Source of the DNA: Ferroglobus placidus DSM 10642
GTDB lineage: Archaea > Halobacteriota > Archaeoglobi > Archaeoglobales > Archaeoglobaceae
Length of the DNA stretch: 32,000 nucleotides
Assembly (NCBI RefSeq): GCF_000025505.1
Contig: NC_013849.1
Location: 1,980,001 to 2,012,000 of the forward strand
Direction of reading: 5' to 3'
Shown here: piece after piece, positions 4,083 to 31,948 of the stretch
Layout: every line of letters starts with the position of its first letter
How positions within the stretch are numbered: the stretch's first letter is position 1
Made by a program: the position numbers and the translations under genes
The notes under the pieces: generated by a model
What the model was told of the DNA's origin: nothing
What the model saw: only the letters and a program-made list of their open reading frames with translations
Databases searched by the model: none

Positions 4083-4391
4083 TTAGCCGTGAAAGTCTTT
4101 TTCACCTTTTATGCCTATAGCGATGTTGGCTTTGAGAGCTACTTCGAAGTATTCTTCGTCTGGTTCAAGCAAAACGAAGCGTTTTGGAACGGGAATTGCA
4201 AGAAATTCTCCGAAGTCCTTGTTGTTCTCTCCTACGTAAACGTTGTAAAACTCTCTCGTCTCCTTGTGAAGGAGCAAGTAAACCTCTTTGTTCTCTCTGA
4301 CGAGCTGCATCAGTCTTTTCTTGTCTATTTTTTCGAAAATCTCGTTACAGATCTCTTCAGCCAACTTCGACGATTCGTCTTCAAGTACCAT
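4083..4391 (-). CDS. hypothetical small cytoplasmic protein
   Basis: 102-aa ORF with normal composition. A TATA-like GATATATAC lies about 35 nt upstream on the minus strand. I recognise no family. Confidence 0.5.
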   Translation of the reverse strand: MVLEDESSKLAEEICNEIFEKIDKKRLMQLVRENKEVYLLLHKETREFYNVYVGENNKDFGEFLAIPVPKRFVLLEPDEEYFEVALKANIAIGIKGEKDFHG

Positions 4392-4660
4392 TTCGAGGGA
4401 TGATTCAAAACGAAGTAGTATATATCTGTTTCTGAATTTCCAACGCGTCCAAAAATTAATCTAATTTTTATAATATCGAAGGAAATTCGAGATTCGATGC
4501 GAAAATAGAACTTGTAATAACAATTCTCTTTATACGTTATTCCAATCGTGACTTAAGATAAATTAAGAGAAGTTATTATTGCTCCTCTATAAGCTTCTTC
4601 AGATGCATCAAAATTGCTGATTAATACTCTCGAAAAGGTAAAGTTTACGGTACTGTATAA

Positions 4661-4711
4661 TATCGATAACCGTTAAATTTATATCGGTCTTCCACATGAT
4701 TAATTGTGACA
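4661..4711 (+). promoter_or_regulatory. promoter/operator cassette P1: 19-mer ATAACCGTTAAATTTATAT (4666-4684) plus 18-mer ACATGATTAATTGTGACA (4694-4711)
   Basis: The 19-mer recurs exactly at 7295-7313 (minus strand) and 18122-18140. The 18-mer recurs exactly at 18151-18168. The TATA (TTTATAT, 4678-4684) predicts a TSS near 4702-4708, inside the 18-mer. Confidence 0.75.
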
Positions 4712-4743
4712 CCAGTTTGCTTCTTGCTATGGGGGTGCAGATA

Positions 4744-6057
4744 ATGAAAAACTACATGTACAACAAAAAAATTGAGACGATGAAAAGGGAAAAAATTAAG
4801 GATCTACAATTCAAAAGGCTGAAAGCAACTGTAAAAAGGCTTTACGAAAATGTACCATACTACAGAAGGAAGATGAAAGAAGCAAATGTAAAACCTGAGG
4901 ATATAAAAACTCTCGATGACATCAGAAAATTGCCCTTCACAGAGAAGGAAGATTTGAGAAAAAATTATCCTTTTGGACTCGTTGCAGTTCCTCTGGAAAA
5001 AGTTGTTGAGCTTCATGCCTCTTCTGGAACTACTGGAAAGCCGACAACTGTTGTTTACACTCGAAAAGATCTTGAAGTCTGGGGAGAGGTAATGGCTCGC
5101 TGCTTAGCTATGTCAGGTTTGACTAAGAAAGACATCTTCCAGAATCCGATACCCTACGGTCTTTTTACCGGAGCTTTCGGATTTCATTACGGGGCATTAA
5201 AAATAGGTGCGTTAATAGTTCCGAGTAGCGGCGGAGATTCAAAAAGACAAATAACACTAATGAAGGATTACGGAACTACTTTCATGTCAGGAGTCGTTTC
5301 CTACGCTCTGCATTTGGCAAAAGTGGCGATGGACATGGGAATAGATCCGAGCAAAGATCTGAACGTTCGAGCCGGGTTGTTTGGAGCTGAGATATTTACG
5401 GAAAGCTTGAGGAAAAAACTCAACGATTTATGGGGCATGGATGCCCATAACGTTTACGGGTTAAGTGAAATGTGTGGACCGGGAGTTTCTGCCGATTGCG
5501 ACCAGCATGACGGACTACACCTCTGGGAGGACCACTTCCTCGTTGAATGCATAGATCCAAAAACCGGTGAACCAGTTGAAGCTGAGGAGAAAGGAGAACT
5601 TGTTATTTCGACGCTAACAAAAGAGGCTATGCCACTTCTCAGATACAGAACGAGAGATCTTGCCTTCATCTACGATTGTAAGGAGTGCGATTGCGGAAGA
5701 ACGCACGTAAAGCATTCTACGATTGTAGGCAGAACTGACGACATGATAATAGTCAGCGGAACGAACATTTTCCCGAGCCAAATCGAAGAAGTCGTCATGA
5801 AACACCAGAAAGGAGGAGTTGAGTACAGAATTATCCTCGAAAAGAATGGATATCTTGACGTCATGACCGTCGAAGTCGAATCTTTACACCCGTTATCAGA
5901 AGAAGAGAAGAAAACGCTTGCTGAATATTACGCCAACGAAATAAAGTCCGTAACCGGATACAAGCCAAGGGTTAGGATTCTCGATCCCGGAACTATTGTG
6001 AGAGAAGGGATAAAGGCTAAGAGGATCATAGATCTAAGACCTAAAGAAAGCTCCTAA
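4744..6057 (+). CDS. phenylacetate-CoA ligase family (PaaK / coenzyme F390 synthetase-like) adenylate-forming CoA ligase
   Basis: Motifs: YYRRKMKEANVKPEDIKTLDDIRKLPFTEKEDLR, P-loop SSGTTGKPT, and the PaaK-type C-terminal domain. I start the gene at ATG 4744 (MKNYMY), preceded by SD-like GGGGGTG. The track start at 4696 lies in the promoter box, probably upstream of the TSS. Confidence 0.8.
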   Translation: MKNYMYNKKIETMKREKIKDLQFKRLKATVKRLYENVPYYRRKMKEANVKPEDIKTLDDIRKLPFTEKEDLRKNYPFGLVAVPLEKVVELHASSGTTGKPTTVVYTRKDLEVWGEVMARCLAMSGLTKKDIFQNPIPYGLFTGAFGFHYGALKIGALIVPSSGGDSKRQITLMKDYGTTFMSGVVSYALHLAKVAMDMGIDPSKDLNVRAGLFGAEIFTESLRKKLNDLWGMDAHNVYGLSEMCGPGVSADCDQHDGLHLWEDHFLVECIDPKTGEPVEAEEKGELVISTLTKEAMPLLRYRTRDLAFIYDCKECDCGRTHVKHSTIVGRTDDMIIVSGTNIFPSQIEEVVMKHQKGGVEYRIILEKNGYLDVMTVEVESLHPLSEEEKKTLAEYYANEIKSVTGYKPRVRILDPGTIVREGIKAKRIIDLRPKESS

Positions 6058-7318: not shown

Positions 7319-7495
7319 GCGTACACACTTAACTTTGCAGTCTTTAAAACCAAAATAAGAGAGTCAGAATATGCAAAAATCGTAGATCAAGGAATTATAA
7401 CTAGTTTATTGCTAATTTAAATCCGTAAAATCTCTTTTTCATAAGATTTCTCTTAAAATTTGAAATTTTAAAGATGTAGCTTGGGAAGCAAAATC

Positions 7496-7555
7496 AATTA
7501 ACCATTAACTGATTGACGAAAAAGTTAAATATTTGGTATCTATTAATCATGCTAA
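7496..7555 (+). promoter_or_regulatory. candidate degenerate version of the cassette upstream of the symporter pair
   Basis: TTAACCATTAAC (7498-7509) differs from TTAACCGTTAA by 1 nt. It is separated from the TATA-like GTTAAATATTTGGT (about 7524-7537). ATTAATCATG, the reverse complement of CATGATTAAT, follows. Confidence 0.35.
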
Positions 7556-9243: not shown

Positions 9244-10158
9244 TTATAATTTTTTATTTCTTTTTATAACTTCCACAAGCTTTGGAATAACTTCCTCCCA
9301 CCTGCTTACAATTCCGTAGTCTGCATATTCAAAAATTGGAGCGTTTTCATCTTTGTTTATTGCAAGTATTCTCTTTGCATGCATAACACCGATCATATGC
9401 TGAATTTGACCGGAAATTCCTACAGCTATGTAAAGTTCTGGCTTTATTTTCTTTCCAGAAAATCCTATCATTGTATCCTCTGGAAGCCACGAGTAATCGT
9501 AAGCTACCGGACGAGTACTTCCAAACTCAGCCTCGAGAATTTCTTTCAGCTCGTAAAGTCGCTCTACGTTCTCTCTTTTCCCTACACCTCTTCCGAGTCC
9601 GATGACGACTCTAGCATTTTCAAGATCCACCTCCGACTTCTCTTTTTCTATCACTTCAATAACTTTTGTGTTTTCACTTACATCAACAGAAACTTGAGAT
9701 TCTTCTGGAATTTCGTTTCCCTCCTCTATTTCGAACACTTTTGGCATTACGCTTATAACTGCCGGAAGTCTGGAAAGTCTGATAGTTGCGATAGTTTTTC
9801 CGCTGAAACACATCCTTTCAACTACAATACTTTCTCCCACATCTATTTTCGTCACATCGGTGACGCACGGATAGCCGAGTCTTTGCGCAACTCTAGGGGC
9901 TATTTCTTTTCCTCTCTTTGTAGCTCCTACAAGTATCAAATCGAAGTTTTCCATTTTTGCAACATTTTCAATCGCAGCAACTGCGTGGTCTTCAAACCTT
10001 ATATTCGAAGAAATACTGCATCTCAGAACCTTGTCAGCGAAACCCTCAAAGCTTTCGGAGGAGTATGTTAAAACAAAAGCTCTCTCCTTAAAAGGTCTTA
10101 CGCCAGAAAGGATTTCCTTTGCAACTTCATCGTTATCTGAAAAAACGAGAAGTTTCAC
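9244..10158 (-). CDS. etfA: electron transfer flavoprotein alpha subunit
   Basis: 304 aa. The C-terminal FAD-binding region reads PELYIAVGISGQIQHMIGVMHAKRILAINKDENAPIF. It overlaps etfB by 4 nt. Confidence 0.85.
   Translation of the reverse strand: MKLLVFSDNDEVAKEILSGVRPFKERAFVLTYSSESFEGFADKVLRCSISSNIRFEDHAVAAIENVAKMENFDLILVGATKRGKEIAPRVAQRLGYPCVTDVTKIDVGESIVVERMCFSGKTIATIRLSRLPAVISVMPKVFEIEEGNEIPEESQVSVDVSENTKVIEVIEKEKSEVDLENARVVIGLGRGVGKRENVERLYELKEILEAEFGSTRPVAYDYSWLPEDTMIGFSGKKIKPELYIAVGISGQIQHMIGVMHAKRILAINKDENAPIFEYADYGIVSRWEEVIPKLVEVIKRNKKL
9249..9264 (+). terminator. oligo-T tract, candidate archaeal terminator for the symporter unit
   Basis: TTTTTTATTTCTTTTT lies 15 nt after the symporter stop, inside the 3' end of convergent etfA. 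Confidence 0.3.
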
Positions 10159-10913
10159 AGAATTCCCTCCTTTATAAGCTCAGAAACTATTTCATTGACA
10201 GCTTTATCCACATCTTCCTTGTAAATCTTTTTCTTCCTATCGATACGCGGAGCTTTGTTTCTCAGAACCTCAATGTTGCTTCCAACGCTAATACCGAGTT
10301 CCGAAGTTTCAAATCTTTCAACGGGTTTCTTAGCAGCTTTTAATATTTGAGACAAAGAAGGTAACCTCGGTTCATTGATTTCGTTTGTGACAGTGAGAAC
10401 AGCGGGCATACTAGCCTCAACCCTCTCAAACCACTCCTCCAAATCCCTCAATACAACGATTTTTCTCGATTCTACATCAATTTTCTCGATTCTTCTTACG
10501 AAAGTCAAAATAGGAAGTTTCAAAATTTCCGCAACCCTCGGACCGACTTGGGCAGTGTGAGTGTCTATGGAAGCTTCTCCGAAAAACAATAAGTCAAAAT
10601 CTTCGATGTTCCTGACGATCTCAGCTATTGTTAAAGCCGTGCTCTCAGTATCAATTAATTCACGAACAGCAATAACTTTTGCTTCGTCTCCACCAATAGC
10701 AAGCGCTTCTTTTACAACACTACTGACATAATCTCCGACAACAATCACCGTAATTTTCCCGCCAAATTTTTCTTTTATTCTCACAGCTTCTTCTAAAGCG
10801 TTTTTACTCAAATCATCAAGCTTTGTTGGAAAGGTAATCGGCTCGAGGGTTTGAGGGTCTATTTTCACCTGATCAACGTCGACAGCCTGCTTTGCGCAGA
10901 CAACTACATGCAT
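10155..10913 (-). CDS. etfB: electron transfer flavoprotein beta subunit
   Basis: 252 aa. Motifs: MHVVVCAKQAVD..., DLLFFGEASIDTHTAQVGPRVAEILKLP, and the ETF-beta recognition loop region. Confidence 0.85.
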   Translation of the reverse strand: MHVVVCAKQAVDVDQVKIDPQTLEPITFPTKLDDLSKNALEEAVRIKEKFGGKITVIVVGDYVSSVVKEALAIGGDEAKVIAVRELIDTESTALTIAEIVRNIEDFDLLFFGEASIDTHTAQVGPRVAEILKLPILTFVRRIEKIDVESRKIVVLRDLEEWFERVEASMPAVLTVTNEINEPRLPSLSQILKAAKKPVERFETSELGISVGSNIEVLRNKAPRIDRKKKIYKEDVDKAVNEIVSELIKEGIL

Positions 10914-11002
10914 CCGATCACCATTAATTGTTTACCGATAGTTTTAAATATAATTTTCGGTTTAATTCCATTATCATTAAGGAAAAATCTGGAGGTGAAA
11001 AG
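10914..11002. promoter_or_regulatory. 89-bp divergent intergenic region with a quasi-palindromic TATA (TTTTAAATATAA, 10942-10953) and an ATTAATTGT box (10923-10931)
   Basis: The single AT-rich box is spaced to serve both etfB (ATG 10913, near-leaderless) and the FadH-like gene (SD 10991-10998, TTG 11003). ATTAATTGT is the core of the 18-mer found at P1 and P4. Confidence 0.4.
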
Positions 11003-12943
11003 TTGCTGAAACACCTTTTTGAGCCGATTAAAATCGGGAAATTCAAAATTAAAAACCGGGTAAAGTACGCAGCCTGTTCGGTTTCGAACTTCAACAATCC
11101 AGATGGAACAGTTTCTGAAAGAGAGCTTGCGAGAATGAGAGTTGTTGCAAAAACCGGATGCGGGATAATAACAAACCAAGGTGCTTACCCAGACAGAGAA
11201 GGGTATGGAAAAGGATATGCAAGACAGCTAGCTATATATGACGATAAATTCATACCCGGGCTGAGGAAGATAGCGGAGATAATTCACAACGAGGGGGCTA
11301 TAGCGATACAGCAGATTTTGCATGCTGGAAGGTACGGTGGCTACGACACGGGCATAGCGTTGCAACCATCTCCGGTTCCTCAGAAACTGAGACACTACAG
11401 ACCAGTAAGGGAAATGACGAAAGAGGAGATAAGGAAGGTAATAGTCGATCATGCAGAGGCTGCCAGAAGAGCAATAGAGGCGGGATTTGACGGAGTGGAA
11501 ATTACGGCATTTATGGGTTACTTGTTGGCAAACTTCCTTTCCCCCTTCACAAACAAGAGGACTGACGAGTACGGAGGTGATGTGGAAAAAAGATGCAGAT
11601 TCATGGTTGAGACGATCGAAGCTATAAGAGGGAAGATAGGAGACGACAAACTGATCTCCATAAGATTGAACGGGGCTGAACTTCTTGACGAGGTTGGAGG
11701 TAGCACTGAAGAGGAGTGCTTGGAGTACATGAAAATTGCAGAAGAGGCAGGGGTGGATATAATAAGCATAGTCGTGGGATGGCACGAGTCTTCGAAAGGA
11801 GCGTTAGGAAGAGATTTGCCAACTACTCAGTGGCTTTACTTAGCTGAAAGAGCTAAGAAACATCTCAAAGTTCCGATAGCTTTTGGACCTCGTTTTGGAG
11901 ACCCAAGACTTGCTGATAAGGCTATAGCAGACGGGATAATCGACCTGTGGGAGATCTGCCGTCCAGCATTAGCTGATCCGGAAATTTTACACAAAGCCAA
12001 GGAAGGTAGATTCGATGAAATTAAGCCTTGTTTGGGAGGTCTAATGTGCCTATCCACGATGTTCCACGACTTACCGTACATCTGCACGGTTAATCCAAGA
12101 ATCGGTCATGAAATAGAGCCAGAATACGAGATCAAACCAGCTGTTAGGAGAAAAAAGGTTGTAATAGTTGGAGGAGGACCGGCAGGTTTGGAATGTGCGG
12201 TTACGGCAGCTAAAAGAGGGCATGAGGTAATACTCTACGAAAAGGAGGACAAGCTTGGAGGACAGTTGATTCCAGCTTCAAAAGAAATAGGAGGAGGTTA
12301 CGTTTTTCTCGATCTGATAAGGTATTATGAAGTTCAGCTGAAAAAGCACGGGGTGAAGGTTTACACTGGAGTTGAGGTTACCCCAGAAATAATAATGAAA
12401 GAAAAACCCGATGTGCTCGTTTTAGCTACTGGGGCAACGATAACAAAAGATTACAACGAAGTAAATGGAGTTAAGATTTACACGGCTATAGAATTACTAA
12501 AAGATGAAAGAATTGCAGAAGAAATTGGTGATAATGTCGTTGTCGTTTCTGGAGAAAGGGCGGGTTTAGTTGCAGCAGAATACCTCGCGAAAAAAGGGAA
12601 AAAAGTGACGATAGTTGAAGAGGGTAAGAAAATAGCAAAAGACGTAATCCCAACGTTCAAGTGGAGGCACAAGTTATGGGTTAGCGAGCTTGGGATAAAT
12701 GTAATCACCGAAGGAAAGATTGGAGAGATAAAAAAGAACAAATGCGTAGTTAAAACGAAAAACGGTGATGTAGAAGTCCCAGCTGATGCAATAGTTTTAG
12801 GAGGTCCGAGAAAACCTATCAACGGTCTCTGGAGCAGTATAGAATTTTTGGCAGATGAAAAATACATAATAGGAGATGCGGTTTTGCCGAGATCGATTGC
12901 TTACGCAATACACGAGGGTTACAAGCTCGGAGCGAGGATTTAA
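11003..12943 (+). CDS. 2,4-dienoyl-CoA reductase / enoate reductase-like flavoprotein (OYE-type TIM barrel plus Fe-S linker plus FAD/NAD(P) domain)
   Basis: Motifs: LFEPIKIGKFKIKNRV, QILHAGRYG, the C-terminal dinucleotide fold VVIVGGGPAGLECA, and a second Rossmann region. I start at TTG 11003, 5 nt after GGAGGTGA. The track start at 10928 lies in promoter DNA. Confidence 0.8.
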   Translation: MLKHLFEPIKIGKFKIKNRVKYAACSVSNFNNPDGTVSERELARMRVVAKTGCGIITNQGAYPDREGYGKGYARQLAIYDDKFIPGLRKIAEIIHNEGAIAIQQILHAGRYGGYDTGIALQPSPVPQKLRHYRPVREMTKEEIRKVIVDHAEAARRAIEAGFDGVEITAFMGYLLANFLSPFTNKRTDEYGGDVEKRCRFMVETIEAIRGKIGDDKLISIRLNGAELLDEVGGSTEEECLEYMKIAEEAGVDIISIVVGWHESSKGALGRDLPTTQWLYLAERAKKHLKVPIAFGPRFGDPRLADKAIADGIIDLWEICRPALADPEILHKAKEGRFDEIKPCLGGLMCLSTMFHDLPYICTVNPRIGHEIEPEYEIKPAVRRKKVVIVGGGPAGLECAVTAAKRGHEVILYEKEDKLGGQLIPASKEIGGGYVFLDLIRYYEVQLKKHGVKVYTGVEVTPEIIMKEKPDVLVLATGATITKDYNEVNGVKIYTAIELLKDERIAEEIGDNVVVVSGERAGLVAAEYLAKKGKKVTIVEEGKKIAKDVIPTFKWRHKLWVSELGINVITEGKIGEIKKNKCVVKTKNGDVEVPADAIVLGGPRKPINGLWSSIEFLADEKYIIGDAVLPRSIAYAIHEGYKLGARI

Positions 12944-13340
12944 TGGTAGTGTCACTATAATGTTGATAAATTATAGTAATGAATCCACAGTTTGATTGAA
13001 TTTCGAGCATTTCCAAAGATCTTGAAAATCTGATTGATTTTCTTGCGAATCTCGGATTGTCGTTTCGTAAAGTTAAGAATAATCTTTCAACGTGGTTTGT
13101 TCCTCCTTTTCTTATGATCCTCTGTTTGTAAGGGATCAAATTATAAGCGTCCCAGCGATCCGTGTAAAAGATAGCTTTCTGCTTGATCTCACCACCAATA
13201 CCGTCCCACAACCTTTTGAAAGTACCTACAGAACGATCTCCTACGGCATAACTTATTATTTTTCGGGAATTTCTCTCTAAAGCAATCCAAATCCAGACTT
13301 CTTTTTCCTTTTTCCTAACGAAACTCCAAGCTTCATCCAA
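12819..13340 (-). CDS. insB: IS1-family transposase catalytic part (InsB-like)
   Basis: DEAWSFVRKKEKEVWIWIALERNSRKIISYAVGDR...FYTDRWDAYNLIP...TNHVERLFLTLRNDNPRFARKSIRFSRS matches the IS1 InsB pattern. The frame is open upstream to 13412. It has no stop inside the element and runs about 40 codons into DNA antisense to the FadH-like 3' end. Confidence 0.75.
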   Translation of the reverse strand: MDEAWSFVRKKEKEVWIWIALERNSRKIISYAVGDRSVGTFKRLWDGIGGEIKQKAIFYTDRWDAYNLIPYKQRIIRKGGTNHVERLFLTLRNDNPRFARKSIRFSRSLEMLEIQSNCGFITIIYQHYSDTTIKSSLRACNPRVLRKQSISAKPHLLLCIFHLPKILYCSRDR

Positions 13341-13750
13341 TTCAACAACAGGATTATCGTGACCGATTTCATTTCTCAGGTCTTTTTTTAGAAAATTCTC
13401 TAACCCAAGCCGTTACAGTGTTAGGAGAAAGCTTGAAAATCCTGCTCGCTTGTCTTACTCCCACTCCCTCCCTTACCACAGCCTTCACAACCATCTCCTT
13501 GAATTCTTCCGGATAATTCCTCGGCTTTATCGGATTTAAAACAAAAGTTCTTCCGCAGTTCTTGCATTTGTATCTCTGCCTCCTTTCTCCGGATTTTGTG
13601 TGATAACAGCCCATTTTCACAGTTTTTATCGATTTGCAATGCGGACACATCATCACCGATTTATCCAACTAATTGAATATAAACATTACTGAGGCATTAT
13701 CAATTTAATTTTTTCTAAACTTATTTTTTGTCATGATAGTGAAAATTTGG
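12944..13750 (-). mobile_element. IS1-family insertion sequence (boundaries approximate)
   Basis: It contains InsA-like and InsB-like ORFs. An imperfect terminal inverted repeat has the core TCACTATAATG (12952-12962) paired with CATGATAGTGA (13732-13742), about 16/22 over the extended arms. The left end GGTAGTG resembles the classical IS1 GGTGATG terminus. I found no target-site duplication. Confidence 0.6.
13369..13668 (-). CDS. insA: IS1-family transposase N-terminal part (InsA-like; Zn finger plus HTH)
   Basis: CPHC...CKNC zinc finger, then the HTH region GVGVRQASRIFKLSPNTVTAWV. It ends 44 nt inside the InsB frame, and the overlap contains an A7 run. Confidence 0.75.
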   Translation of the reverse strand: MDKSVMMCPHCKSIKTVKMGCYHTKSGERRQRYKCKNCGRTFVLNPIKPRNYPEEFKEMVVKAVVREGVGVRQASRIFKLSPNTVTAWVREFSKKRPEK

Positions 13751-14953
13751 GAAAATCATCCCTGGTTGATAGATACTGATAAGTTTAAAAGATTTAATCA
13801 GAAGTATACTATGTTCAGTAGAACTGGCTGGGATAAGAAAGTAAAAGAAATGGCAAGAAAAAGCGTTGAGAGTGTCGTGAGAAACATAAAATATGGAAAA
13901 CGCTCATCTCTTCTTGATTACGCTTTTATGTCTGCTGGTTGGTGGGTTGCGATAAAAGGTGCTCCTTTTCAGATGGATTACGGAGATGGCGGACTGATAA
14001 GTTGGAAGAGTGACATTTCACCGATATTTTCGATAGCTTCTCCTTTCTGGAACGAAAAATTAAGTGAATTCAGGAAAAAGTTTAGAGAAGATGCTGAGAA
14101 AAATCCGGAAAAACTCACCAGAGTTGTAAAGAAAGTTGCAAAGTATTTCGGAGCAGATCTTGTCGGTGTAGCCGAATTTGACGAAAGGTGGGTGTATTCG
14201 GCAAGAGTGCTTAATCCGAGATATCATATCGGGAAGGAATTTATTGAAGAGTCTCTGGAACTGCCAGAAGTTAGGTACTGCATAGTGCTCGCTATCAAAG
14301 AGGATTATGAAATGCAATCTACAGCCGACGGTGGAGTTTCAATGGGAGACATAGCCTTTGGATATTCAAAAATGGCTATTGTAGCCGGAAGTCTTGCCGA
14401 ATTTCTCAGAGCGTTAGGTTTTACAGCTATCCCAAGCGGTAACGACCTGGCGTTAAGCATCCCATACGCTATTTCCGCCGGACTTGGAGAATATAGTAGA
14501 ATGGGCTTACTTATAACTAAAAAGTTCGGTCCTCGAGTTAGACTCGCTAAGGTTTTCACTGACACCCCCCTCAAAGCTGATAAACCCGTAAGATTTGGTG
14601 TTTACGAATTTTGCTTGAAGTGTAAAAAATGTGCTGAGAAATGCCCGGCTAAGGCGATTCCCTTCGAAGATCCGAGTTGGAAAAGAAAAACTATAAGCAA
14701 CATTGAAGGAATTTACAAGTGGCATGTGGATGTTGAAAAATGCTTCGAATACTGGTGTAAGTCTGGAAATCTGGGATGTGGAGTTTGCGTAAGGGTTTGT
14801 CCATACAACAAACCCTCAGGAAGAACTTATTTTATCCACGCATTTTTCAGAGAATATATTGTTCCGATTGTTGGTGGTAAAGTTGCTAAAATCTTCGACG
14901 ATTTGCTTGGATACGGGAAGAGGAAATCCTCTTCCGAGTGGTGGAATTCGTGA
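13733..14953 (+). CDS. reductive dehalogenase-like (RdhA family) corrinoid/Fe-S protein, cytoplasmic type; QueG-like is the alternative
   Basis: 406 aa. Two C-terminal ferredoxin motifs are present: CLKCKKCAEKCP, and C-x6-CGVCVRVCP. The N-terminal DKFKRFNQKYTMFSR resembles the RdhA N-terminal motif. There is no twin-arginine signal. Confidence 0.55.
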   Translation: MIVKIWENHPWLIDTDKFKRFNQKYTMFSRTGWDKKVKEMARKSVESVVRNIKYGKRSSLLDYAFMSAGWWVAIKGAPFQMDYGDGGLISWKSDISPIFSIASPFWNEKLSEFRKKFREDAEKNPEKLTRVVKKVAKYFGADLVGVAEFDERWVYSARVLNPRYHIGKEFIEESLELPEVRYCIVLAIKEDYEMQSTADGGVSMGDIAFGYSKMAIVAGSLAEFLRALGFTAIPSGNDLALSIPYAISAGLGEYSRMGLLITKKFGPRVRLAKVFTDTPLKADKPVRFGVYEFCLKCKKCAEKCPAKAIPFEDPSWKRKTISNIEGIYKWHVDVEKCFEYWCKSGNLGCGVCVRVCPYNKPSGRTYFIHAFFREYIVPIVGGKVAKIFDDLLGYGKRKSSSEWWNS

Positions 14954-14961
14954 TTGTTTGG

Positions 14962-15022
14962 TATCGTTAACCGTTAAATTTATATTGGTTTTTCAGCTAA
15001 AAATTGTGATAATAAATCACAA
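14962..15022 (+). promoter_or_regulatory. promoter/operator cassette P3: TTAACCGTTAAATTTATAT (14967-14985) plus perfect 7-5-7 palindrome TTGTGAT-AATAA-ATCACAA (15004-15022)
   Basis: It matches the 19-mer at 18/19 positions and forms a perfect TTAAC-C-GTTAA inverted repeat. AATTGTGA (15002-15009) sits 17 nt after the TATA end, the same spacing as at P1 and P4. Confidence 0.7.
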
Positions 15023-18116: not shown

Positions 18117-18168
18117 TATCAATAACCGTTAAATTTATATTGGTTAGATTACATGATTAATTGTGACA
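18117..18168 (+). promoter_or_regulatory. promoter/operator cassette P4: exact 19-mer (18122-18140) plus exact 18-mer ACATGATTAATTGTGACA (18151-18168)
   Basis: Both boxes are identical to P1, with a 10-nt spacer against 9 nt at P1. The SD AAGAGGTG (18175-18182) and hyuA ATG 18188 follow. Confidence 0.75.
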
Positions 18169-18187
18169 TCTTAAAAGAGGTGTTCGA

Positions 18188-20242
18188 ATGAGAATCGGGA
18201 TCGATGTCGGTGGAACTTTTACCGACGTTGTTCTTGTAGATGATCAATCTGGAAAGCTTTACCACACGAAAACTCCAACAACGCCAAAAGATCTGACTGT
18301 CGGAGTTTTAAGAGGTATTGAAAAAATTCTTGAGATCAGTTCTGCAAAAATTGAAAATTTGAAGTATATAGTCCACGGAACGACGATAGGAACGAACGCA
18401 CTCATAGAAAGAAAAGGAGCAAAAACAGGGCTTATAACTACTGAAGGATTCATAGACGTGCTGGAGATAGGTAGATTCCAGCGGCCTAAAGAAGGACTTT
18501 ATGATATGACCGTAGACAACCCAGAACCTCTTGTTCCGAGGTATTTGAGAAAGGGTGTTAAAGAGAGAGTTAACAGCAAGGGAGAAATCGTAAGACCTCT
18601 CGACGAAAAATCGGCAAGAGAAGCTGTGGAGTTTTTAATCTCTGAAGGTGTTGAATCAATAGCAGTTTCGTTTCTGTTCTCGTTTTTGAATCCGACTCAC
18701 GAGAGAAGGGTTAGAGAGATAATAAAAGAAATTAATCCAGAGATTTACATTTCTCTTTCCTCTGATATAGCTCCAGAATTTAGGGAATACGAGAGAACAA
18801 GTACGACAGTCCTGAATGCCTACCTCCAGCCAATACTTGAAAGGTATCTTGAAGATCTTCAGAAAAAGCTTGAGAAAAAGTATGGAATAGAAGACCTAAG
18901 AATTATGCTCGTTCACGGAGGAATAATGCCGGCTGAAACCGCTAAGAAGTATGCGGTGGCAATAGTAAATTCAGGACCAGTGGGAGGAGTTGTAGCTGGA
19001 AGCTTTATTGGCAACATTCTCGGTTTTGAGAACATAATCACAGTAGACATGGGAGGGACAAGTTTTGACATTTCTTTAATTGAGAAAGGGACTCCCGTCG
19101 TTACTACGGAGGGAAAATTCGAAGGTTATCCTGTTAAAATACCCATCGTAGATGTGCATACAATTGGAGCTGGTGGAGGAAGCATAGCTTGGCTCGATAA
19201 AGCCGGAGTTCTTAATGTTGGTCCGCAAAGTGCTGGGGCAGATCCCGGACCAGCATGTTACGCAAAAGGAGGGAAAGATGCTACTGTGACTGATGCGAAC
19301 TTAGTTCTTGGAAGACTTTCTGCGGAGAACTTCCTTGGAGGAGAAATGAAGCTCGATGAGTCTCTTGCGAGAAAAGCAATCTCGAAACTTGCGAATCAGA
19401 TGGACATGAGCGTAGAAGAAGTAGCTATGGGAATAATAAGAGTAGCTGATGCGAAGATGGAAAAGGGGATAGCTACATGCTCGACTGAGAGGGGTTACGA
19501 TGTAAGAGAATTTGCTCTTGTCGCTTTCGGCGGAGCTGGACCATTGCATGCAGTTCAGATAGCCATGGATCTTAACATACCTTGGGTCATAATTCCACCA
19601 CTTCCTTCGGAATTCTCTGCTTTCGGACTTCTTGTTGCAGACATCAAGCATGACTACGTAAAAAGCTACATTGTCGAGGAGGATGAAGTAGATCTGTCTC
19701 TTCTCCAGAGTTACTTTGCTGAGCTGGAGAAAAGAGGAATTGAGCAGTTAAGAAAAGAGGGTGTAAGGGAGGAAGATATGGAAATCAAGTGGTCGATGGA
19801 CATGCGTTATTCCGGACAGAGCTACGAGTTGAACATTCCGGTTGAGAGGGGGACGAAGTTCACGAAGGAGAGTTTTGGAGAAATCATAAAGAGGTTCCAC
19901 AAAAGACACGAGGAAGTTTACACTTACAGTTCCGAGGATGAAAAGGTGGAAATCGTTAATCTAAGGGTAACTGCAATTGGAAAAGTGCCGAAAATTCAGC
20001 TTGAAAAAATCGAGAGAGGAAATAGAAATCCCCCAAGCGAGGCTTTAAAAGAAGAAAGAGAAGTTTATTTTGGAAACGGATTTTTGAGAGTACCAGTTTA
20101 CACAAGAGAGCTGATGCTTGCTGGAAATTTTGTAGAAGGACCATGTATAATCGAGGAGAGGTTCTCGACGACTGTTATTCACCCAGGCTGTAAGGCTAAG
20201 ATTGACGATTTCGGTAATATCATTGTTGAGGTGAAAGTCTGA
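18188..20242 (+). CDS. hyuA: hydantoinase A/oxoprolinase family subunit (HyuA; acetone/acetophenone carboxylase beta-type)
   Basis: 684 aa. The ASKHA ATPase start is MRIGIDVGGTFTDVVLVD, followed by the second phosphate motif VDMGGTSFDISLI. Confidence 0.85.
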   Translation: MRIGIDVGGTFTDVVLVDDQSGKLYHTKTPTTPKDLTVGVLRGIEKILEISSAKIENLKYIVHGTTIGTNALIERKGAKTGLITTEGFIDVLEIGRFQRPKEGLYDMTVDNPEPLVPRYLRKGVKERVNSKGEIVRPLDEKSAREAVEFLISEGVESIAVSFLFSFLNPTHERRVREIIKEINPEIYISLSSDIAPEFREYERTSTTVLNAYLQPILERYLEDLQKKLEKKYGIEDLRIMLVHGGIMPAETAKKYAVAIVNSGPVGGVVAGSFIGNILGFENIITVDMGGTSFDISLIEKGTPVVTTEGKFEGYPVKIPIVDVHTIGAGGGSIAWLDKAGVLNVGPQSAGADPGPACYAKGGKDATVTDANLVLGRLSAENFLGGEMKLDESLARKAISKLANQMDMSVEEVAMGIIRVADAKMEKGIATCSTERGYDVREFALVAFGGAGPLHAVQIAMDLNIPWVIIPPLPSEFSAFGLLVADIKHDYVKSYIVEEDEVDLSLLQSYFAELEKRGIEQLRKEGVREEDMEIKWSMDMRYSGQSYELNIPVERGTKFTKESFGEIIKRFHKRHEEVYTYSSEDEKVEIVNLRVTAIGKVPKIQLEKIERGNRNPPSEALKEEREVYFGNGFLRVPVYTRELMLAGNFVEGPCIIEERFSTTVIHPGCKAKIDDFGNIIVEVKV

Positions 20243-21955
20243 TGAAGGCTGATGCTATTACGATGCAGGTTATTAGATACGCTCTTGAGAGGATTGCCGA
20301 CGAAATGGGGTATACAATAGTCAGAAGTGCGAGATCAACCATAATCAAGGAAGTTATGGACATCAGTTGTGCAATTTTCAATGAGAAAGGATATACGATA
20401 GCCCAAGCTCATCACGCCCCTATGCTTCTCGCGGGTTTCGAAATCACTATGAGAGAACTCGTCAAAAGATTTCCTCCAGATTCTCTTGAGGATGGAGACG
20501 TTATAATCTCTAACGATCCTTACATGGGTGGACAGCACGTTATGGACGTTCAAACCTTCGCTCCCGTGTTCTACGAAGATGAGCTCGTGGGTTTCGTTGG
20601 AAGCATTGCACACATGACAGACATGGGAGGAGCTGTTCCGGGAGGAGTTGCTGGAGGAATGACGGACATATTCATGGAAGGTCTTAGACTTCCGATGATC
20701 AAGCTGTACAAAGGATACAAAGAAAATGAGGATGTTTTTGCGATTTTGAAAAACAACATAAGAGTTCCAGAAAAAACTCTTGGTGATATAAGAGCTCTCG
20801 TCTCTGCAGACTACGTTGGGATCAAAAAGGTTAGAGAACTCTACAAAAAATACGGTGTCGAAGTAGTTTCTGAATGCCTAAACGCTCTTCTGGATTACTC
20901 CGAAAGGAGGATTAGAGAGGGGATAGAAAAGCTTCCCGATGGAAAATACAGCGGAGAAGTTTACATCGATGATGACGGAGTTACAGATGACCCAGTCAGG
21001 ATTAAAGTAAACGTTAGGATAAAAGGAGACGAAATAAAAGTCGATTTCAACGGAACTTCGAAGCAGGTTAGGGGTAACATAAACTGTCCGATAGCAACGA
21101 CCTATGCGGCAGTTTACTACACAATCATAGCGGTTGTCGATCCTCACGTCCCGATAAACTCCGGCTGCTACAGACCGATAACAATCGAAGCCGAAGAAGG
21201 ATTAGTGGTCAACCCCCGCCCACCAGCGGCTGTTGCAGCGAGAACCAACTGCTCTCAGAAAATAACTGAAGCCATGCTCAAAGCTTTGAGCGAAGCAGCC
21301 CCTGACAGAGTTATGGCTGGCAGTCATGCCCAGATAACAACCTGCAGCTTCAGCGGTTATCAGAACGGAAAGAGGTGGATATACATCGAAATCATGGGAG
21401 GAGGAATGGGAGCTCGTTCGTTCAAAGATGGTAAAGACGGGCAGGACTCGCATCTTGCGAGGTTTATGAACACTCCGATAGAAGCTATAGAGATAGAATA
21501 TCCGGTAATGATAGAAAGGTACGAGTTCATACCCGATTCAGGGGGAGCAGGAAAATACAGAGGAGCTTTAGGCTTGAGAAGAGACATCAGGTTTTTGACG
21601 GACGAAGTAGTTTTCGCAAGGTATGGAGACAGTCAAAAGTTTCCCCCCCCACGGTCTTTTCGGAGGAAAACCCGGCATGCCAGGAAGGTTTATTCTTAAT
21701 CCGGATAAAGACAACATCCGTTTGAAATCGAAGGGGGTTGACGTTTTGAGGAAGGGGGATGTCGTTAGCTTGCAGCTTCCCGGAGGCGGAGGATACGGAA
21801 ATCCGCTTGAAAGAGACTTTTCTCTAATCGAAAGGGATGTCAGAGACGGGAAAGTTACGATAGAGGGAGCTAAGAGAGATTACAAGGTTGTAATAGATCC
21901 AAAAACCCTGAAGGTTGATGTTGAGGCTACGAAAAAGCTGAGAGGTGAAATCTAA
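20242..21955 (+). pseudogene. hyuB: hydantoinase B/oxoprolinase family subunit (HyuB), reading frame broken in a C8 tract
   Basis: ORF 20242-21699 carries the HyuB N-terminal and core regions. ORF 21623-21955, in the +1 frame, carries the conserved C-terminus (GLFGGKPGMPG...LPGGGGYGNPLERD). The frames switch at CCCCCCCC, 21643-21650. Removing one C gives the continuous sequence ...QKFPPHGLFGGKPG. Confidence 0.8.
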
Positions 21956-22446
21956 TGGAGATCAAGCTTGTAGAAGAAATCTCTCACGACAAAGAGTCTG
22001 GAGGGTGGTATTATAAAGGGATTCGCTATCTTCTCATCCGACCCGAAACGATAATTGGGATCCAGAAGAAGGTGAATGAAATTTGTGGAGAAAGTAAAGA
22101 GGCTCTTTTCTCAGGAGGATATACCGGAGGTAAGTTATCTGCCGAAAAGTTTGCGAAAGAACTTGGACTTTCAAAAGAGGAAATCCTTGCTTTCATGTGC
22201 TCCATGGGAACTCAGCTTGGCTGGGGAAAAATGGAGTGGGAACTTCGCGAAGAAAAATTCGTTGTTAGAGTTCACAACTCTCCCTTTGCCGAAGCGTACG
22301 GAAATTCAACGAAAGGAGTTTGTCATCTCATCGAAGGTGTTTTTGCCGGGGTTGGGGAGATAATTTTTGGAAAAGCAGTAAGCGAGGAAAGACTGTGCAA
22401 GGCAAAAGGAGATGATTACTGCGAAATAGTTGTTGAGAGAAGGTGA
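21955..22446 (+). CDS. V4R (4-vinyl reductase) domain small-molecule-binding protein
   Basis: 163 aa. Motifs: RYLLIRPETIIGIQ, GGYTGG, GWGKMEW, VHNSPFA, CHLIEGVFAG and a C-terminal CKAKGDDYCEIVV, matching the V4R pattern. Its TAATG start overlaps the hyuB stop. Confidence 0.7.
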   Translation: MEIKLVEEISHDKESGGWYYKGIRYLLIRPETIIGIQKKVNEICGESKEALFSGGYTGGKLSAEKFAKELGLSKEEILAFMCSMGTQLGWGKMEWELREEKFVVRVHNSPFAEAYGNSTKGVCHLIEGVFAGVGEIIFGKAVSEERLCKAKGDDYCEIVVERR

Positions 22447-22452
22447 TGTTTT

Positions 22453-23595
22453 ATGGACTTCACTTTCACCGAAGAGCAGGAGATTTTTAGAAGAACTCTT
22501 CAGGAATTCGTTGAGAAGAAAGTTAAGCCAAAAGCAAACGAAATTGAAAGGAGTGGAGAATTCCCCAAGGATCTTTTCAAAGAACTTGCAGATCTGGGCT
22601 GCTTTGGTTTGAGGTATCCAGAAGAGTACGGTGGTGCCAACGCTGACTGCGTAACCTTCTGCATCTTCTGCGAGGAAATGGCTAAAGGTTTGCTGAGTTT
22701 GGCTGCGAGCGCTACGATTCAAGCTTTCCAGAGCACTCATTTCATAGCCAAATTTGGAAGTGAAGAGTTGAAAGAGGAATACCTCGTTCCAGCCATTAAG
22801 GGAGAGAAAATAGGAGCAATCTGCATGACGGAACCAAATGCCGGCTCGGATCTCGGTAGTATTACAACGACGGCTGTAAAAGACGGAGATGAGTACGTTA
22901 TAAACGGAGTAAAAACTTGGGTGACAAACGGAAGCATAGCCGACTTTTACACTGTCGCCGCAAGAACGAGTAAAGGGAAAGGAATGGAGGGAATAGATTT
23001 CTTTTTGGTGCCAAGAAAAGCGGAAGGGGTTGAAGTGGGAAGAGAAATTGACAAAATGGGTTTGAGAGGTTTGAAGACTTCTGAAGTCGTCTTTAACGAT
23101 GTAAGAATTCCGGCTGATCACCTCCTTGGCGAGAAGGAGGGGATGGGTCACATATATTTGAGGGAGATCTTAGCTGAGATAAGAGTATCCACCGGAGCTT
23201 TAAGCCTTGGAGCCGGTTCTGCTGTGATAAAGGATGCGATAGAATACGCAAAGGAGAGAGTTCAGTTTGGAAAGCCTATAGGAAAGTTTCAGGCTGTGAG
23301 GTTGATGATTGCAGAGGCTGCAACCGAGCTCGAAGCTGCAAAATGGCTCGTTTATCATGCGGCATGGCTTATAGATAAAGGAAGGAAGCCTATTAAAGAA
23401 GCAAGCATGGCGAAGCTGTTTGCGAGTGAGGCGGCGGTTAAAGCGGTTGACATAGCTTCAAGAGTGTTCGCAAGTTACGGTTTTTCAAAAGATCACGCTG
23501 TTGAAAGATTCTACAGAGATGTTCGCTTTCTTATCATCGGAGGTGGAACTTCTGAAATTTTGAAGCTGATTATTGCTTCCGAGCTGGGGTTGTGA
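22453..23595 (+). CDS. acyl-CoA dehydrogenase family flavoprotein
   Basis: 380 aa. Motifs: MDFTFTEEQEIFR, CMTEPNAGSDLGS, and C-terminal FYRDVRFLIIGGGTSEILK. Confidence 0.85.
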   Translation: MDFTFTEEQEIFRRTLQEFVEKKVKPKANEIERSGEFPKDLFKELADLGCFGLRYPEEYGGANADCVTFCIFCEEMAKGLLSLAASATIQAFQSTHFIAKFGSEELKEEYLVPAIKGEKIGAICMTEPNAGSDLGSITTTAVKDGDEYVINGVKTWVTNGSIADFYTVAARTSKGKGMEGIDFFLVPRKAEGVEVGREIDKMGLRGLKTSEVVFNDVRIPADHLLGEKEGMGHIYLREILAEIRVSTGALSLGAGSAVIKDAIEYAKERVQFGKPIGKFQAVRLMIAEAATELEAAKWLVYHAAWLIDKGRKPIKEASMAKLFASEAAVKAVDIASRVFASYGFSKDHAVERFYRDVRFLIIGGGTSEILKLIIASELGL

Positions 23596-25657: not shown

Positions 25658-26662
25658 ATGATAAGCAGCGAAAGGAAAATAATAGAAATTTTGAAAATTC
25701 TTTCAGAGCAAAAAGAGCCGGTAGGAGCCAAGTTTATAGCTGATCAGCTGAAAAAAAGAGGAATCTACCTGACAGAGCCTACCGTTCGCTACTACTTGAG
25801 AATTCTCGACGAAAGAGGCTTGACTAAAAACTACGGATTGCGGGGAAGAGTAATTACGGAAAAGGGTTTGAAAGAAATAGAGAAAGGGGATATAGCCGAT
25901 AGAATAGGGTACAGCATAAGCAGAGTTCACGAATGCGTTTTTTACTCTGACTTCGATGTGGAAAGTGGAGAGGGTAAGGTAGTTGCAAACTTGGCAATCT
26001 TTCCGAGAGAGTACTTGGAAGAAGTTTTGGACATGTTTTACAGGTGCTGGAAAAAAGGTTTGACATTCAGCGATAAAGTAATAGTGGATGAGAACATTCC
26101 CTTTATCGAGGAAAACGAGGTGGGATTGTACTACATTTCAAGCTTTACACTCGATGCCATTCTTTACAGAAACGGAATAGTCTCTTCACCTAGGTTTGCG
26201 GGATCCATAGAGATCTCAAACTTCAACTTCGTGAGGTTTACACAGGTCATAGGACTCGAGGAATCATCAATCACCGCTTTAGACCTCTTCATTCAGAGGA
26301 TGTACTCTGATAAGGACGAGGAGTCTATTTCCAACCTCCTTGAGAAAGGAGAAGGGGAAGTTTACGGAATGTACAGAGAAATACCGTTCGTGGCAAGAGA
26401 AAAAACGATAGAGATTCTTGAAAAATTAAAAGAGTACGGAATCTCTCCTCTTTACGTAATCGGCGAGCTGGACAAAAGCGTTTGTGGCATTCCGCCGAAG
26501 GGTGTGAACAAAGTTGGATTGGTTTGCGTGGGACCTTCAACACCCGTAGGAATCCTCAGGGCTTTGAAAGTTCCGATTAGAGTGCACATATCAAGCGAGA
26601 TTATCGAGTTTTCCAAATTTAAGAGCCTTGAGAGTTATTTAGAGGTGAAGAGTTATGAGTAA
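25658..26662 (+). CDS. NrpR-family transcriptional regulator (N-terminal winged HTH plus one DUF128/NRD-type domain)
   Basis: ERKIIEILKILSEQKEPVGAKFIADQLKKRGIYLTEPTVRYYLRILDERGLTKNYGLRGRVITEKGLKEIEKG matches my memory of the NrpR N-terminus. About 334 aa fits the short single-NRD type. I start at ATG 25658, after GGAG. Confidence 0.65.
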   Translation: MISSERKIIEILKILSEQKEPVGAKFIADQLKKRGIYLTEPTVRYYLRILDERGLTKNYGLRGRVITEKGLKEIEKGDIADRIGYSISRVHECVFYSDFDVESGEGKVVANLAIFPREYLEEVLDMFYRCWKKGLTFSDKVIVDENIPFIEENEVGLYYISSFTLDAILYRNGIVSSPRFAGSIEISNFNFVRFTQVIGLEESSITALDLFIQRMYSDKDEESISNLLEKGEGEVYGMYREIPFVAREKTIEILEKLKEYGISPLYVIGELDKSVCGIPPKGVNKVGLVCVGPSTPVGILRALKVPIRVHISSEIIEFSKFKSLESYLEVKSYE

Positions 26663-29849: not shown

Positions 29850-30554
29850 ATGCTGGGTAAGATGAGCAAACAGACGGCTAAGGATTACGTCAGCGCAATT
29901 TCACGTTTTCTCGAAGACGAGATAAGAACGCCGAAGGATCTCGAAAACGCAATCCTGAAATCGCAAGGAGACAAGTTCGCAAAGGGAATAAGGAGATTCT
30001 TCAACTTCCTCGAAGATGAGGAGGTGGACGAACTCCTCGGCTTCCCCTTAGACAAGTGGAAGAAGAAAGCCCACATCAAGAAATACGACCCGAGGGAGGT
30101 TTTCATCAGCGACGAAGAACTCATCGAAGCCTATAACGAAGTTGCCGAGAAGTTCCCCGAACTCGAAACCATCCTTAAGCTGATGGTCTTCTCGGGAGTG
30201 AGGCTGAAATAGATTCTCGAAGCGCTCGAAACTTTCGACTCAGAGAACGTGGTAAAAGTGAACGGAAAGGTCGCAAGATACCCCATCGCTTCAGCGTCCA
30301 AAGGGAAGAAGAAAGCCTTTTGGATGCACTTCCCGGCAGAACTCGAAATTAAACCGATGAACGTAAGTTACCACGTTGCAAGGGAAAAGCTGAACCTCGG
30401 AAGAGTTTCGGCTAACTCGATCAGGAAGTGGAACTACAACTTTTTGATCTTGAATGAAGTTCCCGAAAGCGTTGCCGACTTCATTCAGGGAAGGGCGTCG
30501 GTAACCGTCGGAAGCTCCCACTACTTAGAAAAAACGAGACAAGCCATAGAATGA
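29850..30554 (+). pseudogene. tyrosine recombinase/integrase interrupted by one in-frame TAG (30210-30212)
   Basis: ORFs 29850-30212 and 30249-30554 are in the same frame, with open codons between them. Box I is SGVRLK*ILEAL. The later catalytic elements are SIRKWNYNF and GRASVTVGSSHY. Confidence 0.7.
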
Positions 30555-31511: not shown

Positions 31512-31694
31512 ATGGATGTCGAGGTTGTGAAGCGAGCAGTCAGAGAGGTTCTGAGAGAAGAGCTTGAGAGGGTTCTCAAAGAAGTAGTTTTAAATCTGAT
31601 TCCCGAAGATGAGCCCGAAGAGGACGAAAAAGAATTCGTGGGGGAAGAAATCTCAGAGAAAGATTACATTCCACTCAAGGAGGTCATGAAGTGA
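31512..31694 (+). CDS. small acidic antitoxin-like protein (RelB-like partner)
   Basis: 60 aa, helical and very acidic (PEDEPEEDEKEF). Its stop overlaps the GTG start of the RelE-like gene (GTGA). Confidence 0.5.
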   Translation: MDVEVVKRAVREVLREELERVLKEVVLNLIPEDEPEEDEKEFVGEEISEKDYIPLKEVMK

Positions 31695-31948
31695 ATGAAG
31701 TCCTTCTTCATAAAAGAGTCGTCAAGTTTCTCGATAAACTCGACAAAAGAAGGAAGGAAAGCATTTTAAAAGTTTTGAAATCTCTTGAAAACTTCCCTTT
31801 AATTAGAGCTGATATAAAGAAGATCGGTAATAGAACATACAGGATGAGAACGGGAGACCTCAGAATAATTTTCGATTACATCAAAGATGAGGATAAGATC
31901 TTCGTCAAATTGGTTGATTTCAGAGGGAAAGTTTATAAGAAAATGTAA
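31691..31948 (+). CDS. relE: RelE/ParE-superfamily toxin (type II TA mRNA interferase)
   Basis: 85 aa. Motifs: KFLDKLDKRRKESILKVLKSL, YRMRTGDLRIIFDYIKDEDKIFVKLVDFRGKVY, a typical RelE/StbE pattern. Confidence 0.7.
   Translation: MNEVLLHKRVVKFLDKLDKRRKESILKVLKSLENFPLIRADIKKIGNRTYRMRTGDLRIIFDYIKDEDKIFVKLVDFRGKVYKKM

Follow-up and report, generated by a model that had tools for sequence, protein, structure and literature searches.

A conserved box at the predicted transcription start of indoleacetate-cluster promoters in Ferroglobus placidus, a candidate second operator

Almost nothing is known about the regulation of anaerobic aromatic catabolism in hyperthermophilic archaea, and neither a regulator nor an operator is on record for the archaeal indoleacetate (iaa) cluster. 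The stretch of DNA analyzed here, referred to below as the window, comprises 32,000 nucleotides of the hot-vent archaeon Ferroglobus placidus DSM 10642 (positions 1,980,001 to 2,012,000 of NC_013849.1). It represents the iaa (indoleacetate, i.e., auxin, degradation) cluster of this organism, because the acyl-CoA dehydrogenase encoded at 22453-23595 is identical to WP_012966786.1 of F. placidus DSM 10642, the protein that has been named the IaaF orthologue of the predicted archaeal iaa operon (PMC8360864). Several promoters of this cluster share a first box (box 1) at the TATA element, and two of them carry a second one (box 2), an identical stretch of 18 nucleotides (nt) located further downstream, where transcription can be expected to start. 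The question raised by this locus is what box 2 does there. Its sequence, position, and conservation indicate that it is a cis-regulatory element overlapping the predicted transcription start of the iaa promoters; the probability that it serves as a second, start-site-proximal operator of the pathway regulon is put at about one half.

Box 1 (TAACCGTTAAATTTATAT) is found as an exact match at four promoters in the window, P1 to P4. At P1 (4667-4685, + strand), it comes with a TAAC-C-GTTA dyad, the TFB-responsive element (BRE) GTTAAA, and the TATA box TTTATATC; this promoter drives the gene for a phenylacetate/indoleacetate-CoA ligase of the phenylacetate-CoA-ligase type, as recognized by PaaK profiles. 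P2 (7295-7312, - strand) precedes a gene for a family III CoA-transferase, and P3 (14968-14986, + strand) precedes the genes for 3-hydroxyacyl-CoA dehydrogenase, thiolase, and a DUF35-type protein. P4 (18123-18141, + strand) serves an operon that consists of hyuA-hyuB (hydantoinase A/B), a V4R gene, iaaF (acyl-CoA dehydrogenase), and the genes for a B12 mutase, an NrpR-like protein, an Fe-S protein, and AOR. The consensus of the cluster promoters combines the BRE GTTAAA with the TATA box TTTATATY.

Box 2 (ACATGATTAATTGTGACA) occurs in the window exactly twice, on the + strand at 4694-4711 (P1) and 18151-18168 (P4), as an earlier note on this DNA had claimed. No further match is present in the window even if 3 mismatches are allowed, and none would be expected from shuffled sequences. 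Its core, AATTGTGA, lies on the + strand at 4702, at 18159, and also at P3 (15002-15009); a stray copy is found on the - strand at 8957, within the coding region of a transporter gene. Counted from the final T of TATAT in the shared BRE/TATA box, the core is offset by 18 nt at P1, 19 nt at P4, and 17 nt at P3, the same distances from box 1 that the earlier note had listed. Its description of this spacing as fixed needs some relaxation: the spacing is near-fixed, and a single extra C in the P1 spacer of a second Ferroglobus species changes the offset there from 18 to 19. At P1, box 2 can be divided into a left half, CATGATTAAT (4695-4704), and the sub-element TTGTGAC (4704-4710). The variant at P3 (15002-15022) has the core in a perfect 7+7 inverted repeat, TTGTGAT-N5-ATCACAA (15004-15022), an arrangement that would be typical of a dimeric regulator.

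In archaeal promoters, the TATA box is centered ∼27 nt and the BRE ∼33 nt upstream of the transcription start, an A/T-rich proximal promoter element (PPE) is found near -10, the start has a pyrimidine at -1 and a purine at +1, and the Shine-Dalgarno (SD) motifs conform to GGDGRD (PMC5316973). Adding 27 nt to the TATA center according to this rule gives predicted, as opposed to mapped, starts at G4708 in P1, at G15008 or A15009 in P3, and at G18165, alternatively G18163, in P4. The start predicted in this way coincides, at each of the three promoters, with the second G of TTGTGA and has a T at -1. Box 2, which begins 10 to 11 nt after the TATA heptamer, would then span approximately -14 to +4, with its ATG at about -12 and ATTAAT at about -9 to -4. 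The proposal that transcription starts inside the box is thus supported as a prediction.

The 18-mer is distinct from the BRE/TATA region, as had been suggested. When the paralogous P1 and P4 are aligned with each other, box 1 with the TATA box and the subsequent YGGT are shared, and the DNA 5' of box 1 cannot be aligned; of the 6 spacer positions that follow YGGT, 1 matches, and the spacer has one indel. This is followed by 18 identical positions out of 18 (20 of 21 with the flank), and the sequences 3' of these have nothing in common. Comparison of species reveals the same pattern. A scan with the box 1 18-mer, which covered one genome per species, returned 56 stretches, of which 4 were relevant, all from the metagenome-assembled genome (MAG) of Ferroglobus sp. 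S146_96. This genome, which has the box 1 18-mer at the four orthologous promoters, is ∼88% identical to the window at the nucleotide level over mostly coding DNA; a metagenome scan with HyuA identified one locus, from the same second species. At its P1, the 17-mer ACATGATTAATTGTGAC is unchanged (17 of 18 positions, the 18th base being G), the next 32 nt of the 5' untranslated region (UTR) contain 5 substitutions, and the DNA 5' of box 1 is unalignable. At P4, all 18 positions are retained in two other Ferroglobus assemblies, and the 7-nt interval that separates the box from the SD motif has 3 or 4 differences, depending on the assembly. At P3, the 69 nt from box 1 through the SD motif are identical in the second species; the leader of P2, which lacks box 2, shows ∼24% substitutions. 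Generally, the 5'UTRs beside the boxes differ by 16 to 24% between the Ferroglobus species, and the far-upstream DNA is unalignable. By our own estimate, the chance of 34 nt remaining unchanged at 20% divergence is ∼5e-4. These alignments indicate that purifying selection acts on box 2 to an extent that the core-promoter consensus does not account for.

The comparison was carried beyond the genus to five syntenic clusters of more distant organisms, with HyuA proteins 71 to 77% identical to that of F. placidus. An extended form of box 1, AyTwATTGwTTACCGATAArTTTAtA, is retained in the hyuA promoters of these clusters. A shorter motif, TGTGR, begins 20 to 27 nt after the TATA box in 8 of the 12 promoters that bear box 1, in six lineages; the mean number of such promoters in 20,000 shuffles was 0.37 and the maximum was 4. 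Other TATA+SD+ORF sites (ORF, open reading frame) of the same genomes (∼200 kb) have TGTGR at that position in ∼1 of 22 cases, although this control set is small and consists of sites without mapped promoters. The difference between these two fractions argues that the start-site TGTGR belongs to this regulon and is not a general initiator. Conservation in orthologous promoters, proposed in the earlier note as a test of the box, therefore extends to the whole element within the genus and to the TGTGR core only in the five distant hyuA promoters.

The relatives also offer a view of how the promoters may have come about. In these organisms, the ligase gene stands at the end of a single long operon and has no promoter of its own, so that P1 appears to be derived and to lack orthologues outside Ferroglobus. 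Most relatives also differ from Ferroglobus in the arrangement of the genes that P2 and P3 serve. On this comparison, the Ferroglobus cluster has been rearranged, and each new unit evidently received a copy of the promoter cassette. A direct example of such cassette duplication in an iaa cluster comes from one distant relative, in which the CoA-transferase gene is preceded by a second copy, 195 nt long and 99% identical, of the hyuA promoter, the 5'UTR, and the first ∼48 hyuA codons (positions 10615-10930 on the - strand of locus L065 versus 9875-10070 of locus L057).

Pieces of box 2 are found at other promoters of the window as well. The third, and only other, exact match to the left half CATGATTAAT is an inverted copy (7542-7551, - strand) at P6, the promoter of a small ORF and a sodium:solute symporter gene. 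It occupies the positions 11 to 20 nt after the TATA box TTAAATAT (7525-7532), at the same distance as in P1 and in the opposite orientation, and is kept in the second Ferroglobus species, with the bases on either side of it changed. The central 9-mer of box 2, ATTAATTGT, has just three exact copies in the window, all of them in cluster promoters. The one outside P1 and P4 is located in the divergent ETF/FMN-reductase promoter (10923-10931, + strand), 5' of a box 1-like TTACCGATAG and the TATA box (10943-10950) for the + strand gene; on the - strand, it reads ACAATTAAT and lies 16 to 24 nt after the TATA box of the ETF gene. Across all copies, the palindromic ATTAAT core is found 11 to 24 nt after the TATA box. 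Given that both the orientation and the distance of these pieces vary, a protein-binding site fits them better than a rigid core-promoter element.

Two side observations can be made on these promoters. The transporter promoter has a box 1-like sequence, TCAATTAACCATTAAC (7494-7510), ∼17 nt 5' of its own BRE/TATA, which is also kept in the sister species; in P1 to P4, by contrast, box 1 and the BRE/TATA adjoin directly. In the segment 10913-11003, a single symmetric TATA region, TTTTAAATATAA, is common to the ETF gene (- strand) and the FMN-reductase gene (+ strand) and is accompanied by a box 1 that resembles those of the relatives (TTACCGATAG). The SD motif of the ETF gene, GGTGAT, would fall at the extreme 5' end of the predicted ETF transcript, and the FMN-reductase gene apparently starts with TTG at ∼11003.

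If box 2 binds a protein, the best candidate is encoded in the P4 operon itself. This NrpR-family regulator (25658-26662, + strand) combines a winged-helix HTH_12 domain (PF08461, 6.1e-22) with an NRD1_2 domain (PF01995, 7.1e-66) and matches the NrpR-like protein MJ0159 (PDB entry 3NEK, 6.8e-23). Its gene occupies the same operon position in the five distant relatives, six lineages in all, and is the sole DNA-binding gene that is conserved with the cluster. The iaa NrpR-like proteins form a distinct clade, with 66 to 70% identity inside it and no more than 42% to other NrpR proteins. The nearest homologues outside this clade (38 to 39% identity) adjoin glutamate synthase genes (loci L069 and L070), which are preceded by AGGAA...TTCCT palindromes with the conserved sequence AGGAAnTAGGTAAGTnATTTCCTAGG. 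At the start of the recognition helix, the nitrogen-type NrpR proteins have Arg (ERxVRYHLR), as opposed to Pro or Gln in the iaa clade, which is consistent with a changed DNA specificity but does not amount to evidence for it. The unannotated ORFs beside P1 (4044-4403, + strand, and 4083-4391, - strand) were also screened for a regulator and contain no DNA-binding domain. All lineages also have, as a conserved member of the operon, the gene for a stand-alone 163-aa XylR_N/V4R protein (21955-22446). This protein is similar to the A domain with which XylR, DmpR, and MobR sense aromatic effectors, and it has no DNA-binding or ATPase domains; this protein could possibly be a sensor partner.

The sequence of box 2, its position relative to the TATA box, its selective conservation, and its co-occurrence with box 1 and the NrpR-like gene are directly seen; from these, a start site, the binding of a protein, the identity of that protein, and the sign of regulation are inferred as follows. 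TBP and TFB would sit on the strong BRE/TATA box, and a pathway regulator bound to box 2 would block the recruitment of RNA polymerase or the opening of the promoter until it is released by an effector. The regulator might act jointly with a site at the dyad located just 5' of the BRE. Under this scheme, the element would consist of a clade-wide TGTGR core at the start and a Ferroglobus-specific AT-rich left half, CATGATTAAT. The suggestion of the earlier note that a repressor uses box 2 as a second operator, keeping the polymerase from being recruited, appears plausible.

Should the divergent NrpR-family winged-helix protein be this regulator, the P4 operon would be autoregulated, and the XylR_N/V4R aromatic-sensor-like protein of the same operon could share in the sensing. 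The specific assignment of box 2 to the NrpR-like protein is tentative and, taken by itself, rather unlikely. The centers of the box 1 dyad and box 2 are separated by 30.5, 31.5, and 41 bp, or approximately 3 and 4 helical turns. NrpR contacts paired operators as one oligomer, and the helical phasing observed here is no more than suggestive of one oligomer contacting both sites. Box 2 itself resembles box 1 at 8 of 14 positions, too weakly for a claim that the two are the same recognition sequence. A fuller version of this scheme, in which an NrpR paralogue was recruited to the auxin operon and a split operator brackets the BRE/TATA (the upstream dyad on one side, the TGTGR/ATTAAT box on the other, on the same helix face and 3 to 4 turns apart), is a speculative one and has to be regarded as doubtful. 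It is equally doubtful that the recruited NrpR, with its DNA specificity altered, responds to 2-oxoglutarate or to a pathway intermediate that is sensed with the help of the XylR_N/V4R protein. If 2-oxoglutarate is the effector, it would tie the breakdown of a nitrogen-containing aromatic compound to the nitrogen status of the cell.

Several results weigh against the operator reading. P2, which carries box 1, has no AATTGTGA; it has only a degenerate and weak AGTTGAAA, located 3 nt nearer to the TATA box. Similarly, box 1 is present and box 2 is missing in the FMN-reductase direction of the divergent promoter, and the 18-mer is missing in all five distant syntenic clusters. The symmetry of the sites is another difficulty. 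The box at P1 and P4 is weakly palindromic (CA..ATTAAT..TG) and also contains an ATGAT/GTGAC pair with a 10-bp spacing. A single palindromic model for all sites was rejected, as P1 and P4 have CACA-N8-TGTG and P3 has TGTG-N9-CACA, which are incompatible; the P1/P4 symmetry differs from the P3 repeat, so that no one binding geometry explains all sites. With respect to the NrpR-like protein, the canonical NrpR operator GGAA-N6-TTCC has two matches in the window, which is the chance level, and neither of them is in a promoter; the motif is also missing from the promoters of the relatives. The lack of a canonical operator leaves the gene neighborhood as the sole ground for this assignment. Finally, a literature search for F. 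placidus transcription start sites, footprints, NrpR in Ferroglobus, and indoleacetate expression yielded nothing usable.

The main rival of the operator reading holds that box 2 is an intrinsic core-promoter module, made of a PPE and an initiator (Inr), that has no dedicated regulator and has been inherited through the copied promoter cassette. General archaeal promoter elements do occur at exactly these positions (PMC5316973). Box 2 shares the location of the PPE and Inr (-12 to +1, with the PPE at ∼-10), has a fitting composition (ATTAAT, T/G), and is found with a strong consensus BRE/TATA. The placement of ATTAAT at about -9 to -4 and of T/G at the predicted -1/+1 in P1, P3, and P4 agrees with the definition of these elements, and GATTAATT likewise follows the TATA box of a promoter of the window that does not belong to the iaa set (4444-4460, - strand); both points count against a dedicated operator. 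In addition, cassettes do spread by duplication, as seen from the 195-nt copy in the relative, and P1 is derived, given that the ligase gene has no promoter of its own in the relatives. However, degenerate elements would not be expected to keep 17 to 18 consecutive bases in paralogues in which the spacer has been randomized. The occurrence of TGTGR in two-thirds of the box 1 promoters versus ∼1 in 22 other sites, even with the small size of the control set, is at odds with the genome-wide commonness that a general element would show. The pieces of the box are found inverted and at variable distances (11 to 24 nt) after the TATA box, and P2 works with the same BRE/TATA and no box. Box 2 is thus longer, more exact, and more regulon specific than the PPE/Inr, with parts that occur in either orientation at variable distance. 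An intrinsic module is possible but less probable than an operator.

The 18-mer could also be a historical relic, devoid of any function of its own, that came to be shared by P1 and P4 through a recent duplication or through gene conversion over a short tract. A cassette duplication is documented in the relative, and the two Ferroglobus genomes are close to each other, at ∼88% nucleotide identity. Nevertheless, divergence of P1 from P4 is already complete in the inter-box spacer and in both flanks, the two species have the same box despite changes of 16 to 24% in the neighboring UTR bases, and TGTGR is kept in place in lineages with HyuA proteins that are 71 to 77% identical. Such a relic is improbable.

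Even less probable is a function of the box as RNA, either as a 5'UTR structure or as a riboregulator. The P3 19-mer can form a hairpin (UUGUGAU-AAUAA-AUCACAA) with a z-score of -4.6, and in the P4 leader (18165-18185), ACAUCUU at the 3' edge of box 2 can pair with the hyuA SD motif GAGGUGU (z = -1.6). However, the predicted start lies inside the box, in the 5' arm of the P3 hairpin, so that most of the box would not be transcribed. The P1 and P4 leaders have no significant structure (z = 0.03 and -1.6, respectively), and in the sister species the pairing at P4 is weaker. F. placidus grows at ∼85°C, which also speaks against such structures, and a search of the whole window with Rfam covariance models gave no hits at the gathering threshold.

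The earlier note had also raised the alternative of a leaderless start at the ATG of the box. Translation from this ATG would involve a leaderless mRNA or, at P4, a 12-codon upstream mini-ORF (MINCD...) with coupling to hyuA, and it would extend the ligase at its N terminus. The translation and reading frame were given correctly in the note, although no signal supports their use: the ATG in the P4 box opens the mini-ORF MINCDILKEVFE (18153-18191), whose stop codon overlaps the hyuA ATG, the ATG at 4696 in P1 is in frame with the ligase, and both frames remain open in the second species, with substitutions only. Good start signals follow downstream in both genes. The ligase gene has its own SD motif, GGGGGTG (4731-4737), and an ATG at 4744 (feature 4731-4746, + strand), as judged from the PaaK profiles, which start at residues 8 to 11 of the protein beginning at 4744, and from the lengths of its 120 closest homologues, which are 419 to 496 aa, nearly all of them 430 to 440 aa; the nearest of these have 432 to 440 aa, and a 96%-identical orthologue is annotated as 437 aa. 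The hyuA gene has the SD motif GAGGTG (18177-18182) and an ATG at 18188 (feature 18177-18190, + strand). A start in the box can be dismissed as most unlikely, since its ATG, 12 nt after the TATA heptamer and at about -12, would lie 5' of any start from this promoter and thus outside the transcript, the second species has not retained the TATA-like TATAATAT further 5' at P1, most changes in the codons that follow MINCD are nonsynonymous (4 of 6 at P1; ILK to IPR or ILR at P4), and P3 has the core without an ATG. The relic, RNA-level, and mini-ORF explanations remain quite unlikely even when taken together.

The operator reading has good precedents in archaea. The NrpR operators of methanogens, found at nif and glnA in Methanococcus maripaludis and Methanosarcina, occupy the start site, just 3' of the TATA box, which is the position predicted for box 2. 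Methanococcus NrpR represses from operators beside the start site, according to the work of Lie and Leigh. In these systems, there is more than one operator per promoter, and an oligomeric winged-helix repressor is released by an effector; a similar arrangement is proposed here, with a regulator of the same family (HTH_12 plus NRD1_2) encoded in the operon. The differences are that box 2 is unrelated to GGAA-N6-TTCC, the iaa protein belongs to a separate clade, the pathway is one of aromatic (auxin) catabolism and not of nitrogen assimilation, and binding in the iaa cluster is putative. The sites of MDR1, Phr, LrpA, SurR, and TrmBL1/Tgr, the last of these on the Thermococcales glycolytic motif (TGM), have the position relative to the TATA box and start that is predicted for box 2, and the same mechanism would be expected, with TBP and TFB bound and RNA polymerase blocked. 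Start-site operators are well known in archaea; it is the sequence, the regulon, and the possible link to NrpR that are new in this case.

Two resemblances in sequence were considered and rejected. The GTGAT/ATCAC half-sites of P3 recall the TGM, TATCAC-N5-GTGATA, but their order is reversed (GTGAT-N5-ATCAC), and P1 and P4 have a single GTGAC and no dyad; in the window, the cluster is not linked to any trmB, lrp, or phr gene. The P3 repeat, read as TGTGA-N7-TCACA, is also similar to the bacterial CRP/FNR sites, TGTGA-N6-TCACA. However, the spacing is 7 and not 6, the host is an archaeon, no CRP-family gene is found in the locus, and P1 and P4 have a single TGTGA, so that this resemblance is one of sequence only.

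Whichever reading is correct, these promoters can be used as a compact test system, in which one strong BRE/TATA has been copied to several units and a candidate regulator is on the spot. The presence of box 2 in some copies and its absence from others constitutes a natural experiment on the contribution of a start-site element. If the NrpR-like protein does bind, the NrpR family would reach past nitrogen control and would offer a defined change of specificity in an archaeal winged-helix repressor. If box 2 is a PPE/Inr module instead, it would be a rare, unusually long, and exactly conserved initiator region in a hyperthermophile.

Several other features of the cluster deserve mention. Scans for sigma-70 promoters and terminators around P1 gave nothing, as expected in an archaeon. 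The hydantoinase B-like gene is broken into ORFs of 485 and 110 aa by one extra C in a C8 homopolymer (21644-21651, within 21623-21699). At this point, the sister Ferroglobus species is in frame, with TTCCCTCCTCAC, and the relatives have a single protein of 572 to 574 aa; the frameshift could be a sequencing error, a pseudogene, or a case of slippage. An IS1-family element is located between the FMN-reductase and reductive-dehalogenase-like genes and consists of a zinc-ribbon/HTH ORF (13369-13668, - strand) and a DDE transposase (12819-13340, - strand); the segment 12944-13703 of this region is missing from the sister species. A gene of the reductive-dehalogenase family (TIGR02486, 4.8e-62) is found within the iaa cluster at 13733-14953, immediately 5' of P3, and one relative (L057) also has a dehalogenase-family gene close to its cluster. 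The window ends, on its 3' side, with two adjoining pieces of a probably frameshifted archaeal integrase of the SSV type and an ORF for a ParE-like toxin (29850-30554 and 31691-31948), which suggest a remnant of an integrated element just past the cluster.

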